Shown: positions 10,754 through 17,506 of the stretch, piece after piece | How positions within the stretch are numbered: position 1 is the stretch's first letter | Layout: each line of letters starts with the position of its first letter | Assembly (NCBI GenBank): GCA_041694815.1 | Contig: JBGFSC010000049.1 | Coordinates: forward strand, 1 to 64,000 | Length of the DNA stretch: 64,000 bases | Direction of reading: 5' to 3' | Origin: Elusimicrobiota bacterium | GTDB taxonomy: Bacteria; Elusimicrobiota; Elusimicrobia; UBA1565; JACRDR01 | Position numbers and translations under genes: made by a program | Notes under the pieces: model-generated | What the model saw: only the letters and a program-made list of their open reading frames with translations | Database searches by the model: none | Told to the model about the DNA's origin: nothing

Positions 10754-11080
10754 TTAAATTACTATTGCCGCATAAGCCCCGGAGCTTGCCGCCGATATCA
10801 CGCGAGCGCCGCGCCATGCCTTTGTGTCGTGCGTAGCGCGCCAAAGGTCATAGACCCGCTGAAGGTTCAACCAGAGCTCCGGGGTGGTCTGAAAGGTCTT
10901 CGCTAGACGAAGCGCCATCTCTGGCGTCACGTCACCTCGTTCATTTACGATCTTGGACACGGTCTTGCGCGACACCCCCAAAGCGGTAGCCACCTCGGAA
11001 ACAGAGAGACGCAAGGGCTCCAAATACTGCCTCTTTAGAATTCCACCGGGATGCGCCGGCCGCCTATTCTTAGGAATCAT
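10754..11080 (-). CDS. higA: HigA/VapI-family antitoxin (XRE HTH), no adjacent toxin
   Basis: PAHPGGILKRQYLEP...TPEMALRLAKTFQTTPELWLNLQ. Confidence 0.88.
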   Translation of the reverse strand: MIPKNRRPAHPGGILKRQYLEPLRLSVSEVATALGVSRKTVSKIVNERGDVTPEMALRLAKTFQTTPELWLNLQRVYDLWRATHDTKAWRGARVISAASSGAYAAIVI

Positions 11081-11081
11081 A

Positions 11082-11134
11082 GGAAAAATTGGTGGCGCGT
11101 AGGGGATTTGAACCCCTGATCTCTGCCTTGAGAG
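11082..11134 (-). repeat. att direct repeat (displaced 3' half of tRNA-Glu)
   Basis: ggaaaaattggtggcgcgtaggggatttgaacccctgatctctgccttgagag, identical to 17422-17474 and diverging at the anticodon loop. Confidence 0.93.
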
Positions 11135-11255
11135 TGCGAACCGGCACTTTTTGATTCTCCGACGTAACTTTTATTTTTTCTTTATTTTCGAAGAGAAATC
11201 CGCATGCATACAGCCGCATCCATTGACATGGATTTACGCCCGTTTTCATCCCAAA

Positions 11256-11277
11256 ATGGCAGAAAAATGGCAGAAAT
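11256..11277 (+). repeat. Putative integrase arm-binding sites, left
   Basis: ATGGCAGAAAAATGGCAGAAAT, 21/22 identical to 17319-17340. Confidence 0.6.
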
Positions 11278-11337: not shown

Positions 11338-12237
11338 CTATGACGGCGCAACAGGCAATGCAAGTCTAGAAGCGAATTTATTAGGGTCTATCCTCCAGGT
11401 GTCGACCTCAGAGATAAAGTATTCCCATAACCGACTACTCCAGTCCTTGAGCCGGTAAAAATGCTTCCTCATGACTTCTTCCGCTGGAAGAAAATCTGAT
11501 TGCTTCTGGAACAGCGTGTCGGTCCACCCTTTCGAGTTCTTTAACACGCCGGCCTTCAAAACCAGGGCTTTCCCCTGCTCGTATCGTATCGCATGGGCCG
11601 TTCGATGAAGCAGATTTCGATACTGCGTGATCTCTCCGTTCCAGCTTCCAAATGTATCGCCCGTTGCCTTTTCGGTACGGGAAGAGATAACCGTCTGAAT
11701 CTTCCCAAAATCCCAGTCCTTGCCACGACGAAGTTTGGCTGTATAACCCGATTCCCTGCAGAAGGCCTCGATCATTAGGCAGGCCATGTCTCGGAGACGA
11801 CCCATGTGAGAATAATACGTGACGAACCTCTCATTCGAGAAATAGGGCTCCAGTGGATGCCCAACGCCTAGGTGAGGCGTTTCAAGTAAGCCGTGACAGA
11901 AGAGGAAGCTCCGAAGAAAGGTGTATTGTGCTTCCGCGAACTGGCGCAACGGCTCAGAACACGCAGCGCGTGGCTGATCCAGCCCGCCTTCAAAATCGCG
12001 GTCAGTAATGTCCCAGATCAACCGTTTCCAAAGCTGTTCATAGGTCGAGAATTCGCGAGTGATGATCTCGAAGGCGTATTTCTCTAGTAGATCGCCACGG
12101 TCTCTGAGGCTTCGCTTTGCAAGCGGTGTGGCCGAGTAGTTTATTAAGGCCGGCGGCCGAGAAATATCCTCGGCCGAACCGCTGGCGATGACCGCGGAAA
12201 GGGATAGATCTCGTAGTCGGATTTCTTTTTCAAGCAT
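11338..12237 (-). CDS. Hypothetical helical protein, possible HEPN-like RNase
   Basis: YRNLLH(RTAH) motif in a helical context; start overlaps the upstream nuclease gene. Confidence 0.45.
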   Translation of the reverse strand: MLEKEIRLRDLSLSAVIASGSAEDISRPPALINYSATPLAKRSLRDRGDLLEKYAFEIITREFSTYEQLWKRLIWDITDRDFEGGLDQPRAACSEPLRQFAEAQYTFLRSFLFCHGLLETPHLGVGHPLEPYFSNERFVTYYSHMGRLRDMACLMIEAFCRESGYTAKLRRGKDWDFGKIQTVISSRTEKATGDTFGSWNGEITQYRNLLHRTAHAIRYEQGKALVLKAGVLKNSKGWTDTLFQKQSDFLPAEEVMRKHFYRLKDWSSRLWEYFISEVDTWRIDPNKFASRLALPVAPS

Positions 12238-13066
12238 CGAGGGTCTTTAGAACCAACCTAAGCTCAATCACTTCGAGCGGACACTCCGGCCAGTTATGTT
12301 CCCAGCAAACAATGACGTCACAATCCTGGGGCTTGTGCCCTTGATCGCGGAAGTGGCTGGAGAGATACTCAAACTCGATACGGACGCGCTCCCACTTGTT
12401 GCCCTGTTTATCCAGCCGACGCTTAGCCTCGCAGTCAGGATATTGTACGCGGACTGCTTCGACTACGAAGCCTAGCTCATGAGCAAGCATCCCAAAGAGG
12501 AACACTACACCCTGCTCGTTGATGGGGGCATGCTGCATTCCGCGAAAATTCAGGATCGGCCCATAAGTGGTTCCGCCGATACTCTGCCACTGCTGTTTAG
12601 AACGTGATGCGACCTTGGCATCTCCGGTTCCATCAACCGATGATGGGGCAGCCAGTTCTGAAACCTGGGGGAGCTGATCAATGAATGGGAAGTCGATCCG
12701 TTTCTTGATCAGCCATTCCCGAAACGCAAGCAGGATATCCTCCCACTTGCCGTATCGCTTCCGCAAAGAGGCAACACTATACTTCGAGAGCTTGTCGAAT
12801 TTCATCCTGGTGCATATGCCCTTAGTTTCAAGGAACACTCGAAGCATCTCTTCAAAGCGCGTGCCATCGTCAATCTTGACGTTCTGCTCGGGCGCGGCGA
12901 CTCCAGCGGCCTTGCAGGCATCTCGCCACCCATCGAAGAGCCGATAGACATGCCATGCCGACACTTCACTAGCCGCAAAAAATTCCGCCCGCGATAGAAT
13001 TCCGCCGCCCTTTTCTTTGGCGACTCGCTGAATTTCGCGGATGACGAGGTCTTTAGTGACTTCCAT
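12230..13066 (-). CDS. Putative PD-(D/E)XK-like nuclease with N-terminal homing-endonuclease-associated helical repeats
   Basis: N-terminal repeats (YRLFDGWRDACKAAG, RKRYGKWEDIL); C-terminal NEQGVVFLF...YPDC...RIEFE...DVIVCWEHNW. Confidence 0.6.
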   Translation of the reverse strand: MEVTKDLVIREIQRVAKEKGGGILSRAEFFAASEVSAWHVYRLFDGWRDACKAAGVAAPEQNVKIDDGTRFEEMLRVFLETKGICTRMKFDKLSKYSVASLRKRYGKWEDILLAFREWLIKKRIDFPFIDQLPQVSELAAPSSVDGTGDAKVASRSKQQWQSIGGTTYGPILNFRGMQHAPINEQGVVFLFGMLAHELGFVVEAVRVQYPDCEAKRRLDKQGNKWERVRIEFEYLSSHFRDQGHKPQDCDVIVCWEHNWPECPLEVIELRLVLKTLDA

Positions 13067-13135
13067 ATGACGAGCTATTTTAGCACTACTCGGTTGCTGA
13101 AAAACGAGCGATTTTTTGAGTTACAATACCTCGCT

Positions 13136-13885
13136 ATGACTTCAAAACCCTGGCCATCCGATAAGGAACTCCAAGCGTTGCCCATCCATACCACGTCCGG
13201 CGAGGCGTTCAAGCACCTCAGCGAACGCCAAAAGAAAAAGGAAGATCCCCGCTCTCTCCTGGCTGAGCCGGCCTTGATCGAGCTCCTAGACGTCATGAGC
13301 GACGGCGCTTTCAAGGTCACGCCGCGCCTGCTCCGGACTTTTTATTCTCCCAAGGTCGGCCTCATCAGGCCGCCGATTCCGAAGGAAAGCCGGCCATGCT
13401 ACCTGTTCCCCGATCACCACGAACAGCTCATGTTGATCCTGACGCTGAGGCAGATATATCGCCTGCCCTTGGCGTCCATTAAGCCCCTGATCGAGCACTT
13501 CCCGGAGGATTCCCGGCACCTCATCATCGACAGGAAGCTGTCCTTCGATGAGCTCATGGACATGGCCCGGATGATCCCCCAAGGGTATAAAGTCGAGGAC
13601 TTTATCCTGGCCAAGACCTGCGACCTGATGACCGAGGACGTGGTCTCCCCGGCCAAGGCGGTGCTGGCTGCGGCTGACCCCGGCGACGGCCTTAAGAGGC
13701 TAGAGGAGGAAGCCATTTTTTCCAGACTCGATGCGATCAAAGCATGGATTTCTTCCGGCCGACGGCAGGAATTCGTGACCCGGGAATCGGCCGAAGCCAT
13801 CCAACACCTGGCTCAAAAACAGCTGGCGGCGCGCAAAGTCGCGCGCAAAGTTCAGGCCCTTAGCACGCGTCTGGCGTCCCAATAG
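13136..13885 (+). CDS. MerR-like HTH protein
   Basis: TPRLLRTFYSPKVGLIRPP...Y...LMLILTLRQIYRLPLASIKPLI resembles the MerR HTH; start chosen 8 nt after TACAAT. Confidence 0.55.
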   Translation: MTSKPWPSDKELQALPIHTTSGEAFKHLSERQKKKEDPRSLLAEPALIELLDVMSDGAFKVTPRLLRTFYSPKVGLIRPPIPKESRPCYLFPDHHEQLMLILTLRQIYRLPLASIKPLIEHFPEDSRHLIIDRKLSFDELMDMARMIPQGYKVEDFILAKTCDLMTEDVVSPAKAVLAAADPGDGLKRLEEEAIFSRLDAIKAWISSGRRQEFVTRESAEAIQHLAQKQLAARKVARKVQALSTRLASQ

Positions 13886-14120
13886 GCCGGAGTTAATTAT
13901 GTCCGGCGACTCATTGCCAACTGCGAAGCTAATACTCTGGAAAAGTGGACATATTTAATTTGACGGTTTACATGAATATTATTTTTACTTGCTGCCCTTT
14001 TTACGCCTGCCTCAAAACAGGCGTGGCCTGTTTTGGACTCCAACCCCGCCCTCGCCACGAATTAAAGAGTTGGGCGATGGCGGGGTTGGAGTCACGGCAG
14101 GCTGTTTGGGCAGAGAGAGC

Positions 14121-14984
14121 ATGGATTTAGGTATGGCAGAGAATAATTCTCTGGAAGAATTGAAGGGAAAGAGGAGAGCTAGGTCGGATACGGGGCGGCT
14201 TCGGCTCAATAATCGGGACTACAAGATAATGTCGGCGCTCGAGGTCTGGGGCGTCTTGGGCCTTGGGCAATTAGCGAGCTTGGTTTTCTATCCGAAGGCC
14301 CTGAACCTGGACTTAATCTTCAATCGGTACGGGCGCAGACTATACGATGGCTACGCTTATAAGCGGGTCTTTCGACTTGAAAAAGCCGGATACATTAAGG
14401 CCTGCGCTCCGGTCCAGAGCCTCTATCGCGAACCGAATAAAGCCTACGTCCTGGCCATTGCCGGCCAGAAAAAATTAGTCGAGGCGGGCCGCTCGGAAGG
14501 CATTCCGGCGCCAAGAAAATGGTCCCCGAGCGCGGTATCCGGCTACCTTTTGCGCAACGCCTATGGATTGCTGCTGGTCCAAATTTCCAACTGCGCGGTG
14601 TCGCCTCGGCACCAATTATTATGGCTCAATCGAGGCCGATACCCCGACCAAGCGAGCCTCCGGATGGGCGTCCCCGACTTCCAAATTGCCGGGGAGAAAA
14701 CACCTATTGACCTGTGGGTAGAGATCGGGCCCAGACGCTCATATAAGCACTCCTCGGGAAATGATTTTCAACAGGGAACGGAAAACGGACGCCCCGCCTT
14801 TCGGCTGTATCCGGGACCACAAGCCGCCCCAGGTTCGGTGAATAGCCATTACGGTCCATCGGTCTTTACAAACATGGTCCCCTATGACTTTGAAGGAGAG
14901 CTTTTGGATCTCCCGTTCAGAAATTCTCAGGACACTGAGCTGACTTTGCGCCAGGCAATCTTTGGCCCCGAGGAATCTTCCTGA
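14121..14984 (+). CDS. Replication-relaxation (Replic_Relax)-like wHTH + PD-(D/E)XK protein
   Basis: RLNNRDYKIM...GQLASLVF...KRVFRLEKAGYI, later PDFQI...WVEIG; upstream of xis; start uncertain (14121 or 14133). Confidence 0.5.
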   Translation: MDLGMAENNSLEELKGKRRARSDTGRLRLNNRDYKIMSALEVWGVLGLGQLASLVFYPKALNLDLIFNRYGRRLYDGYAYKRVFRLEKAGYIKACAPVQSLYREPNKAYVLAIAGQKKLVEAGRSEGIPAPRKWSPSAVSGYLLRNAYGLLLVQISNCAVSPRHQLLWLNRGRYPDQASLRMGVPDFQIAGEKTPIDLWVEIGPRRSYKHSSGNDFQQGTENGRPAFRLYPGPQAAPGSVNSHYGPSVFTNMVPYDFEGELLDLPFRNSQDTELTLRQAIFGPEESS

Positions 14985-14988
14985 TCTG

Positions 14989-15195
14989 ATGGACCGCCTA
15001 ATGACCGTTGACGAGGTCGCCGAGCGGCTGCAGGTGAGGCCGCGGACGATCTATCAATGGGTCCACGAGGGGTATATCCCGGTCATTAAACTCGGCTCGT
15101 TAGTCCGGTTCAGCCAAGCAAGTTTGGCCGAGTGGTTACAGAAACGAGCGGTCCCCGGCCGATCCAGTCGAAGGCTGGAAGTGGACCTTAGTTGA
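14989..15195 (+). CDS. xis: Excisionase-family HTH protein
   Basis: LMTVDEVAERLQVRPRTIYQWVHEGYIPVIKLGSLVRF. Confidence 0.85.
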   Translation: MDRLMTVDEVAERLQVRPRTIYQWVHEGYIPVIKLGSLVRFSQASLAEWLQKRAVPGRSSRRLEVDLS

Positions 15196-15218
15196 GAATG
15201 CCGTAGCGAGGAAAAGAG

Positions 15219-15473
15219 ATGGACAGAATCTATAAGCGGACTGGCATCAAAGGGCCGGTCTGGTACCTGGATTATTTTGCGGACGGCCGGCGGATTCGCA
15301 GGCGATTCGGGCCTTCGCGAGTGGCAGCGGAAGCGGCGCTGGCCAATATCCAGGCTGGACTCGGCCGGGTCGTGGTTTTGACCGTTCCGGAATTTCATTC
15401 ACTTTTAGCCGCAGCCGGCGACAAGGTCGGTCCGCGCCTGCGCAAGCGGCTCGCCGGGCTTAAAGCTGGCTGA
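15219..15473 (+). CDS. Small integrase-derived protein (arm-binding domain, no catalytic residues)
   Basis: 26/50 ungapped identity to the N-terminus of the adjacent integrase; GAGG SD-like sequence upstream. Confidence 0.7.
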   Translation: MDRIYKRTGIKGPVWYLDYFADGRRIRRRFGPSRVAAEAALANIQAGLGRVVVLTVPEFHSLLAAAGDKVGPRLRKRLAGLKAG

Positions 15474-16503
15474 GCAGCGGAATATCCAGCTTCCCGATGG
15501 CCGCGCGGAGATAATCCGGGGCCAAATGGGCGTAGATTTCGGTCGTCTTGATGCTGGAGTGGCCCAGGAGCTTCTGGACCGTGTAGAGATCTACCCCCTT
15601 CATCGCCAGGTAGCTCGCGAAGGTATGGCGCAGGGTATGGATCGAAGCTCCTTTGACCCCGCATTGCCGGCATAGCTTGCGGAAGTCCCGCGACAATATA
15701 TTGCCGTTCAGCGCGCCTCCTTCCCCGGTCGCGAACACGAAAACGTCCCCGTTCTTGTTCCGCTTGAGCTTGTCCAGCAATTGAAGTAGTCGTTCATTTA
15801 GCGGGATGTGCCGGACCTCATAGTCCTTGGGATGCCAGCCTCCCTTGGCCTGGACCGACAGGAGCTTCTTGTCGAAATTGAGATCGTCCCAGGTCAAATG
15901 GATCAGCTCGTCCCTTCGCAGGCCGGTTAGAAGCATCGTCGCGATGATCGCCTTAAGCCGAGGATTGGCTTCGGCCAAGAGCAGTTTGATCTCCTCTGGA
16001 GCCAAGTAACGGACCTGGCGTTTGTGCTCCTTGAGTTTTTTGACAGTTTGAGCAGGGCTCTTGGCCAAGTAACCCCAGGCGACGGCCTTATTGAGCATGG
16101 CCTTGACCGTATTGAGCTCCCGGTTAATGGTCGAAGCCTTGGCCCCCTCTTTCTGCCTGTGGGCCTTATAGGCCTCCATTTGCGGCGTGGTGATGGCCGC
16201 CAGGCGCTCGGCCTTGATCAGCCGCGTGAAATGCTTGAGGGTTTGGACGTCGCGCTCATGGGACTTCGAGGCCTTGTTGGAGCTTGCGTACTCCAGATAC
16301 TCCTGGATGAAATCGGCCAGGTTCTTGTCCTTGGCCTGGAATCCTAGCTCCCCGCGCTCCAGCTTGACCTGGATGTCGGCCAAGGCCAGCTCGGCCATGC
16401 GCTTGTTGCGCCCGACGCGCTTGCGAACCCGCCGGCCGCCGAGGGCGTAGTCAATGTACCAGTAGGTGCCCTTCTTGCCGGTCCAGGAATAAAGGCGGGC
16501 CAT
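15460..16503 (-). CDS. int: Tyrosine recombinase/integrase
   Basis: Catalytic set TGLRRDE, PKDY, HTLRH, LLGH, EIYAH all present. Confidence 0.95.
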   Translation of the reverse strand: MARLYSWTGKKGTYWYIDYALGGRRVRKRVGRNKRMAELALADIQVKLERGELGFQAKDKNLADFIQEYLEYASSNKASKSHERDVQTLKHFTRLIKAERLAAITTPQMEAYKAHRQKEGAKASTINRELNTVKAMLNKAVAWGYLAKSPAQTVKKLKEHKRQVRYLAPEEIKLLLAEANPRLKAIIATMLLTGLRRDELIHLTWDDLNFDKKLLSVQAKGGWHPKDYEVRHIPLNERLLQLLDKLKRNKNGDVFVFATGEGGALNGNILSRDFRKLCRQCGVKGASIHTLRHTFASYLAMKGVDLYTVQKLLGHSSIKTTEIYAHLAPDYLRAAIGKLDIPLLSQL

Positions 16504-16529: not shown

Positions 16530-17105
16530 TCACAGCGCTATAACTCCCGGCTCACGAATATTTACGGCGCGTGGATATTTCTGAGGGAATTCATTGCAGA
16601 CATCCGCCATGCGGCTTTCGGCGGTAATGATCGTGACGCTTTTGAGGCCCTCGCCGAGATTATGGGCGATCCAAACTGCCATCGAGATAATCAGCGCGTC
16701 GTTGCCACTGAGCATTTGCGCTCGTCGCTTGGGCGGTCTCAGAGAATAATCGTCATTGAATATGTCCTCTATGTCGCGAAAATGATCGCGCTTGAGCTCA
16801 AAGGAATGGATGATCCTATCGTTCGTCACGTCCTTGAGCAAGGCACCCATCATGCGCGCATATCCATCACGCGCCTTTTCATCGTGGCCTACAAGTTTTT
16901 CTTCGTAGCACGCCCTGGCAAACGCCTTGCTGCACTCAGCCATGCAAATATTGGGGACCTGAAAAATCAGCCGGCGATGCTCACGCGCCCGTGTCTCGAA
17001 CAGGCGTGTTAAGCGGGACTGAATCAGCGCCATCTCCTGATTTTTGGAAGGCGGAAGGTACCGAAAGACGAGCGCGCTGGAGTCTAGGAGGAGGTACTTA
17101 GTCAC
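16530..17105 (-). CDS. PIN-domain (VapC-like) ribonuclease
   Basis: LLLDSSAL, MAECSKA, SGNDALIISMA, IITAE acidic motifs. Confidence 0.75.
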   Translation of the reverse strand: MTKYLLLDSSALVFRYLPPSKNQEMALIQSRLTRLFETRAREHRRLIFQVPNICMAECSKAFARACYEEKLVGHDEKARDGYARMMGALLKDVTNDRIIHSFELKRDHFRDIEDIFNDDYSLRPPKRRAQMLSGNDALIISMAVWIAHNLGEGLKSVTIITAESRMADVCNEFPQKYPRAVNIREPGVIAL

Positions 17106-17256
17106 GCAACAGCGCGAGGACTTGGTCTACGGTCAGGGTTTTTTCCGCTTTAGGAAGATTCCTGATCCGCTCGAAGTGTCTTTCCCAGTTGGCGGGATAT
17201 CTTCGAACCTTGGCCCTCGGCTGTTGGGAGGCTTTAGTCTTCATTGCTGTCGCCAT
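17098..17256 (-). CDS. Small basic ORF (52 aa), candidate antitoxin of the PIN protein; absent from ORF track
   Basis: MATAMKTKASQQPRAKVRRYPANWERHFERIRNLPKAEKTLTVDQVLALLRD*, 3' end overlaps the PIN GTG; true start may be the second Met. Confidence 0.55.
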   Translation of the reverse strand: MATAMKTKASQQPRAKVRRYPANWERHFERIRNLPKAEKTLTVDQVLALLRD

Positions 17257-17318
17257 TGTATCATTTGCCCTAATCAGCCGCCAGGGCCCAAAGACCCACC
17301 TGGTTGCGCGGCTTCATT

Positions 17319-17340
17319 ATGGCATAAAAATGGCAGAAAT
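17319..17340 (+). repeat. Putative integrase arm-binding sites, right
   Basis: ATGGCATAAAAATGGCAGAAAT. Confidence 0.6.
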
Positions 17341-17429
17341 GCAAACAGCCCAAAAAGCGGTCGGAGAAGCCGCCCACCCCGGGCGCGGGCTTCTCCGACG
17401 ACGATTTGAGGTTTTTTAGGCGGAAAAAT

Positions 17430-17506
17430 TGGTGGCGCGTAGGGGATTTGAACCCCTGATCTCTGCCTTGAGAGGGCAGCGTCCTAGGCCGCTAGACGAA
17501 CGCGCC
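17430..17506 (-). tRNA. tRNA-Glu (anticodon CTC), CCA encoded
   Basis: GGCGCGTTCGTCTAGCGGCCTAGGACGCTGCCCTCTCAAGGCAGAGATCAGGGGTTCAAATCCCCTACGCGCCACCA folds as a cloverleaf. Confidence 0.96.

Follow-up and report, generated by a model that had tools for sequence, protein, structure and literature searches.

A small gene with an integrase-type arm domain and a conserved tail beside xis in a tRNA-Glu element of an Elusimicrobiota bacterium: a candidate arm-site binder

The element and its 84-residue ORF

The stretch of DNA analyzed here (the window, 64,000 nucleotides of contig JBGFSC010000049.1 in the Elusimicrobiota assembly GCA_041694815.1) carries a 6.3-kb element flanked by a 56-nt direct repeat (98% identity) that overlaps tRNA-Glu(CTC). 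One copy of this att core (17422–17477) overlaps the tRNA-Glu(CTC) gene (17430–17506, minus strand), and the other, a displaced 3' fragment of tRNA-Glu (11082–11137), marks the far end of the element. The plus strand carries two putative backbone genes without annotation (13067–14984), encoding proteins of 272 aa (13067–13885) and 286–331 aa (13989 or 14124 to 14984, depending on the start), followed by a xis-like gene (14989–15195; HTH_17, PF12728, E=3.9e-16; phrog_66, E=2.6e-13), whose product is presumably an excisionase, and lastly by an ORF of 84 codons (15219–15473, here P0001), the subject of this work. Of 101 genomes of the order, 38 encode a relative of the second backbone gene. A 21-nt inverted repeat (14036–14093, 95%) between the backbone genes could be an origin or a terminator.

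On the minus strand the order is a 52-aa gene (17098–17256), a PIN-like putative toxin gene (16530–17105) upstream of int, and int itself, encoding a tyrosine integrase of 347 aa (15460–16503; PF00589, E=1.9e-32) that converges on the ORF. The resident integrase runs about seven residues beyond the usual end of its family (339–340 aa), at 15460–15486, and this C-terminal extension accounts for the overlap of int with the ORF. The product of 16530–17105, which we take to be PIN-like from its N-terminal motif, and its ~50-aa partner have no match in Pfam, NCBIfam, PHROG or PADLOC. Relatives of the PIN-like gene occur in 13 of the 101 genomes of the order (loci L205–L218, with a second copy on contig C48, L217), and most have a similar ~50-aa ORF on their 5' side, the 52-aa product being the putative antitoxin in the window; the two genes are possibly an unclassified toxin-antitoxin pair. 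Cargo at the far end (12230–13066 and 11338–12237, minus strand) encodes an HNH-associated-repeat protein (PF18780) and a 299-aa protein without a library match. A lone HTH_3 gene, presumably HigA-like, lies just beyond the far att core (10754–11080, minus strand).

The initial annotation described the ORF as an internally deleted copy of the element's own integrase, encoded behind xis and retained by selection. Its description of the anatomy is borne out: the frame is present on the plus strand, starts 23 nt after the xis stop, is preceded by an SD-like GAGG (15208–15211, 7 nt 5' of the ATG), and converges on int with a 14-nt overlap (15460–15473). Residues 1–50 (15219–15368) match the resident integrase without gaps at 26 of 50 positions (BLASTP, E=8e-9) and are modeled as three β-strands and a helix (E3–9, E12–21, E24–29, H34–45). 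The remaining codons (15369–15470) encode a tail with a hydrophobic stretch and two helices, which resembles either the antitoxins Phd/YefM or the start of the integrase catalytic domain. The absence of the core-binding and catalytic domains is likewise confirmed: similarity to integrases ends at residue 50, a Pfam scan of the 84 residues matches 0 families, and a catalytic domain with the R-K-H-R-H-Y residues is lacking. Nor does the ORF have a winged-helix or HTH fold, to judge from the same scan and from a different topology in the model, a fold of that kind being found next door in the PF12728 match of xis.

The arm-domain assignment is based on homology to integrase N-termini (52–66% identity) combined with the predicted β-β-β-α topology, and library matches to this region are weak (PF14657 below the cut-off for one relative; phrog_1 at E=1e-5 to 0.06). 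Foldseek returns no solved structure at E≤0.001, and sequence searches of the PDB give only unrelated weak matches. A model of a longer relative aligns with the arm domain structures 3jtz (Z 4.3, rmsd 2.1, 50 residues aligned) and 2wcc (Z 4.1), both scores lying below those of unrelated PH domains (Z 5.7). In the Atlas the ORF matches unnamed clusters (0.94–0.95) and a Tn916 integrase DNA-binding cluster (0.92).

A family of arm-plus-tail proteins

The ORF has relatives that share its architecture. A word-indexed single-protein search of 5.8 billion clusters found only the ORF itself among 29 candidates; a full HMMER scan yielded 28 hits that included three arm-plus-tail proteins, and two profile searches (11 hits from 3221 candidates; 16 among 8000 scored) added five more. 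The resulting family comprises nine clusters at 90% identity (21 sequences) whose members begin alike, combine the arm domain with a conserved tail and stop at similar places, in short forms (P0001, P0003, P0004 and P0046) and long forms with about 20 additional residues (P0008, P0038, P0039, P0044 and P0045). P0047, P0006, P0040 and similar hits, which continue as integrase or as unrelated sequence, were left out, and P0045, which lacks its N-terminus, was excluded from arm counts and trees. The tail has a hydrophobic stretch and then an E-Y/F-x-x-L-L helix in all members; several stop soon after this first helix, several end in a similar basic helix, and the last four residues of P0046 are those of the ORF. 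A tail HMM built from the eight other members picks out the ORF as the top hit of all six-frame segments in the genome, at E=1.1e-7 compared with 0.43 for the runner-up. The ORF's own 90% cluster has a single member; one family member is labeled Elusimicrobiota, and two related integrase loci come from Elusimicrobia. Judging from these relatives, the ORF is not a one-off decay product but belongs to a conserved family, apparently rare and undescribed; a literature search, mostly of open papers at the level of their abstracts, found no natural arm-only regulator or arm–antitoxin fusion.

Descent of the ORF from the resident integrase, as the initial annotation had it, does not hold up. Other integrases are closer to the ORF (up to 66% identity), and the best other matches in 61 related genomes are full-length integrases at 52–59%. 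A tree built from 41 integrase arms and eight family members places the resident integrase within a clade of 32 integrases (support 97/84) that excludes all eight, and joins the ORF to P0039 and P0046 (98/89); the alignment has 44 columns, few for the number of rows, and the bootstrap is not fully settled. The position of the ORF is less sure because its end branch is long (0.68). We take the ORF to be older than the element in which it now resides. Support for a common origin of the arm in the eight members falls from 89/90 with 25 integrases to 51/77 with 41, so a firm single origin is not claimed. The integrase at L192 (7783–8782) has an arm 66% identical to that of the ORF and 22 consecutive residues in common with P0003, and is frameshifted near residue 312; it may mark the lineage that supplied the arm of the family.

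The pattern of conservation carries the case for selection further than the initial annotation, which had argued from the intact frame, because it is seen across nine clusters and concentrates on the β-sheet of the arm. In the eight members whose N-terminus is complete (arms 50–84% identical in pairs), 14 of the 25 columns invariant in integrases are invariant too, against 2 of the 19 that vary (Fisher p=0.004), a contrast to be read with the caveat that members were recruited by arm similarity, which inflates arm conservation, and that the rows are related by descent. The sheet (residues 2–33) retains 140 of 152 integrase-invariant positions and the helix (34–50) only 38 of 80; L39, present in 41/41 integrase arms, is found in 0/8 family members. 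In the ORF itself 16 of the 19 invariant sheet residues remain; A2, K10 and K28 are gone. Against 25 integrases its median pN is 0.31 and pS 0.71 (0.18 and 0.55 for pairs of integrases). A neutral-decay control for the ORF alone is not decisive: as many invariant residues survived in 15 of 150 runs, and pN was as low in 23 of 150. Taken together, the ORF is real and probably under selection.

The tail was read by the initial annotation as the start of the catalytic domain, joined to the arm by an internal deletion. The resemblance stands for this particular ORF (7 of 16 residues identical to the resident integrase, in a segment absent from the BLASTP output, and 11 of 23 shared with the L002 integrase), but the deletion is not established, and at the level of the family Phd/YefM is the better match (hhalign 19–76% vs ~1%). 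Taken alone, the ORF tail scores higher on average against 27 integrases than 200 of 200 shuffles, its best score against the catalytic-domain start (54–55) exceeds all background windows, and its mean z is 2.5 for that start vs 1.2 for 27 Phd/YefM proteins from relatives; hhalign gives it 4% for either origin. The family tail reaches 76% for Phd/YefM with all nine members, 39–52% without P0003 and 19–23% in subsets, compared with 0.3–1.2% for the integrase body, the templates differing in length in a way that favors the shorter one. The tail HMM scores at best 1.5 bits against the 27 integrases, and the tail compared with integrase residues 49–108 gives z -0.3. A first core-binding helix was also considered as the source of the tail and rejected (z ~0 in eight of nine members and 1.7 for P0003).

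P0003, from a contig of 4.1 kb, carries a near-complete Phd/YefM C-terminal half behind its arm domain (52 columns, 31 bits, z 4.7). The family tail aligns without gaps to β3-α3-α4 of Phd/YefM, strongly for P0003 and weakly for the ORF alone, and the model of a long form has a hairpin (63–72) followed by two helices, the YefM order β2-β3-α3-α4. The aligned region includes the YefM dimer contacts: YefM dimerizes through β3 and α3 (PMC7544224), and the Phd N-domain is described as a dimer module (PMC4803016). PF02604 does not match any of the four members scanned (P0001, P0003, P0004 and P0008) at E≤5, no Phd/YefM structure appears among the fold matches, whose lists are dominated by residues 1–60, and the P0003 tail has no match in the Atlas. 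On balance the tail is probably of Phd/YefM origin, and its derivation from an integrase by internal deletion is a possibility to which we give clearly less credence; the ORF protein is perhaps a chimera. It differs from Phd/YefM proteins in starting with an arm domain instead of the Phd DNA-binding part and in having no adjacent toxin.

The xis–int slot and the arm-like repeats

The arrangement of xis, mini-ORF and convergent int, which the initial annotation had proposed to look for in related elements, recurs in none of 18. A search with xis matched 20 of 301 genomes and gave 25 stretches around the matches, 18 of which show xis facing int or the 3' end of int; the ORF is absent from the xis–int gap in all 18, with gaps of -4 to 5904 nt, four of them below 80 nt. 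Searches of 101 genomes from the order, 393 from the class and 401 sampled across the phylum gave a match to the whole family model in this genome only, the larger searches having scored 13–14 candidates per genome and many genomes being incomplete. The tail is found in the window's own copy alone among 203 loci, and in none of the loci from a metagenome scan (17) or a genome-contig scan (2). Viral contigs gave nothing relevant, the matches on L164 and L165 being due to chance, and plasmids and phages gave no match. The position of the ORF behind xis is known from one locus, that in the window. The ORF is a rare accessory gene: related elements work without it, as its absence from 18 of 18 gaps and from the 392 other genomes of the class searched indicates, and this counts against the role preferred below.

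The loci L041–L064 make up a family of small tRNA-targeting elements consisting of the 272-aa backbone gene, xis, a variable slot and a convergent int, with targets that include tRNA-Glu, Val, Ala, Asp, Gly and Arg. Five proteins encoded in the slots of four elements match models of defense systems (AbiD, SoFic, PDC-M21A/B and PDC-S01); the slots contain other cargo as well. Some genomes of the class hold two or three integrases of this family, the present genome only the resident one, and frameshifted integrases occur. An element at the same tRNA-Glu(CTC) in L191 has both backbone genes and int, without a xis match or a mini gene.

Tandem 10-nt repeats are present at both ends of the element, and are the sole two tandem pairs in the genome. 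One pair (17319–17340), with an 11-bp period, lies in the tRNA-side junction and the other (11256–11277) in the far junction. Around the tRNA-side pair are promoter-like -35 and -10 sequences (17316–17345, minus strand) that face the 52-aa, PIN-like and int genes and are at chance level when taken alone. The comparison across the family is more informative: of 36 distinct family integrases, counting that of the window, 30 have a repeat pair with the 11-bp period upstream of the gene (1.8 expected from shuffles; 9 of 36 loci by a stricter match). Because the second repeat copy ends in a -10-like hexamer in 26 of these 30 pairs, in most of the 26 with a TTG or TGG hexamer some 17 nt before it, the repeats appear to be part of a probable int promoter. 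The same repeat is common to elements that target different tRNAs. We infer that the repeats are arm sites and that the conserved site is a promoter. In 10 loci only 10–16 nt separate the end of the pair from the start codon of int, a spacing that points to leaderless transcripts of the gene, and in others cargo lies between promoter and int.

Such an arrangement resembles that of KplE1, where an att-side promoter overlaps recombination sites; the integrase promoter there is reported to overlap attL and to be autorepressed (PMC2951348).

Possible roles of the ORF protein

The ORF is not a tyrosine integrase, a Pfam Phd/YefM member or an HTH-type recombination directionality factor (RDF), as its domain content indicates. 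Its N-terminal half resembles the arm N-domains of heterobivalent integrases (λ Int residues 1–64/70; the integrases of HPI and of P4-like elements; PDB 3jtz, 3rmp and 2wcc), which combine a three-stranded sheet with a helix, and specifically the arm of the tRNA-targeting integrase family (52–66% identity). Unlike these domains, it is encoded by a separate gene, has a changed helix and a different conserved tail, and is not followed by core-binding and catalytic domains. The protein is expected to act much as the arm domain of an integrase would on its own. The free λ N-domain, which binds arm sites in isolation, is a precedent; as far as the consulted portion of PMC9791396 goes, it is a laboratory fragment and not a natural gene, as the ORF is. 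Being a small basic protein beside xis and int, the ORF product is also reminiscent of RDF and autoregulation systems (λ Xis; TorI/IntS of KplE1). Known RDFs of tyrosine integrases are winged-helix proteins with their own sites (compare PMC11963761). The ORF product instead derives from an integrase, and its predicted targets are the arm sites of that enzyme, in an element that already has an HTH_17 xis.

The reading we prefer, with a probability of roughly 50%, is that the ORF encodes a dedicated, catalytically empty arm-site binder, produced alongside Xis, that turns off int and impedes reintegration. As the last gene of the xis-containing row, it would be co-produced with Xis, and its protein would bind the integrase's own repeats through the retained β-sheet, probably dimerize through the tail, and stay out of the Int tetramer because the conserved face of the helix is gone. 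Repression of the int promoter together with occupancy of the arm sites would lower the supply of integrase and hinder reintegration after excision. The competitor role, which was among those suggested initially, fits the anatomy of the protein and gains a concrete candidate target in the repeats, which coincide with a conserved promoter-like stretch 5' of int. Since the elements of the family have common repeats, the protein could act likewise in trans on them. Besides the rarity of the ORF and its single known setting, the weak fold matches, the neutral-decay control and the recruitment of members by their arm weigh against this reading, as do two observations from other systems: in vitro the free λ N-domain makes the C-domain bind and cleave better, without triggering its recombination (PMC9791396), and autorepression in KplE1 is not lifted by single arm-site mutations (PMC2951348). 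A bolder form, which we put forward tentatively, is that of a natural dominant-negative mini-protein in which an integrase arm and an antitoxin-derived dimer module make a two-headed arm-site binder. Coming on together with Xis, it would silence the int promoter and block reintegration, and could also jam rival elements that have the same repeats. In contrast to winged-helix RDFs, such a protein would govern direction at the arm sites of the integrase itself.

A second directionality factor, also among the roles suggested initially, would fill or bridge arm sites and, with Xis, favor the excisive complex or stimulate Int in trans. The place of the ORF in the xis row accords with it, as does the stimulation of the λ C-domain by the free N-domain (PMC9791396), and a dimerizing tail could bridge sites. 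Against it, the invariant helix positions, which are likely the face for protein contacts, are largely lost (38 of 80 kept). Moreover, all 18 related elements do without the ORF, and four leave less than 80 nt between xis and int. We regard a role in excision as unlikely.

A passive relic, in which a deleted or chimeric integrase fragment sits in the variable xis–int slot without function in this element, would agree with the rarity of the ORF (1 of 393 genomes, a single-member cluster, an end branch of 0.68), with its loss of A2, K10 and K28 from the sheet (16 of 19 invariant residues kept), with the neutral control, which is compatible with decay for the ORF alone, and with the existence of frameshifted integrases in the family. 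It does not explain why, with arms only 50–84% identical, the frame stays open through a homologous tail in every member, whereas broken integrases elsewhere run into unrelated sequence and not into the family tail; the SD-like site and intact start of the ORF also speak for a working gene. Such a relic is quite improbable in our view.

An antitoxin or toxin-antitoxin regulator of the Phd/YefM type, with an arm domain swapped in for the DNA-binding part so that a toxin is coupled to the state of the element, draws on the P0003 tail (31 bits over 52 columns, z 4.7), on the family tail profile (76% with P0003 and 39–52% without it), and on the promoter-like site around the repeats, which faces the PIN-like gene. 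This proposal is more doubtful again, as PF02604 is missing from the four members scanned, the ORF alone gives the same 4% for Phd and for integrase, several members end short of the toxin-binding C-terminus, and int, not a toxin gene, lies after the ORF and converges on it. The ORF as a needed antitoxin of the PIN-like gene was rejected, since that gene has its own conserved ~50-aa partner, also in its relatives.

Least probable of all is an exclusion factor that binds the common repeats of incoming or co-resident elements and prevents them from expressing int or integrating, while hardly affecting the element that carries it: the repeat is indeed common to elements with different tRNA targets, some genomes have two or three family integrases, and the slot holds defense genes in relatives (AbiD, SoFic, PDC-M21, PDC-S01), but the element has the same repeats itself, which leaves self-discrimination unexplained, and this genome has one family integrase only.

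If the preferred reading of a catalytically empty arm-site binder is true, the ORF would be a natural counterpart of the laboratory fragments of the λ Int N-domain. With it one could then ask directly how the occupancy of arm sites determines the amount of integrase and the direction of recombination, and integrase-based tools could gain a compact off-switch. Short ORFs with an arm DNA-binding domain are usually dismissed as broken integrases; as the present one belongs to a conserved family with a tail of its own and a selective pattern of loss, some of them are probably real regulators. More broadly, the overlooked small tRNA-targeting elements have an int promoter that is probably built from arm-like repeats, and a xis–int gap that collects defense genes.
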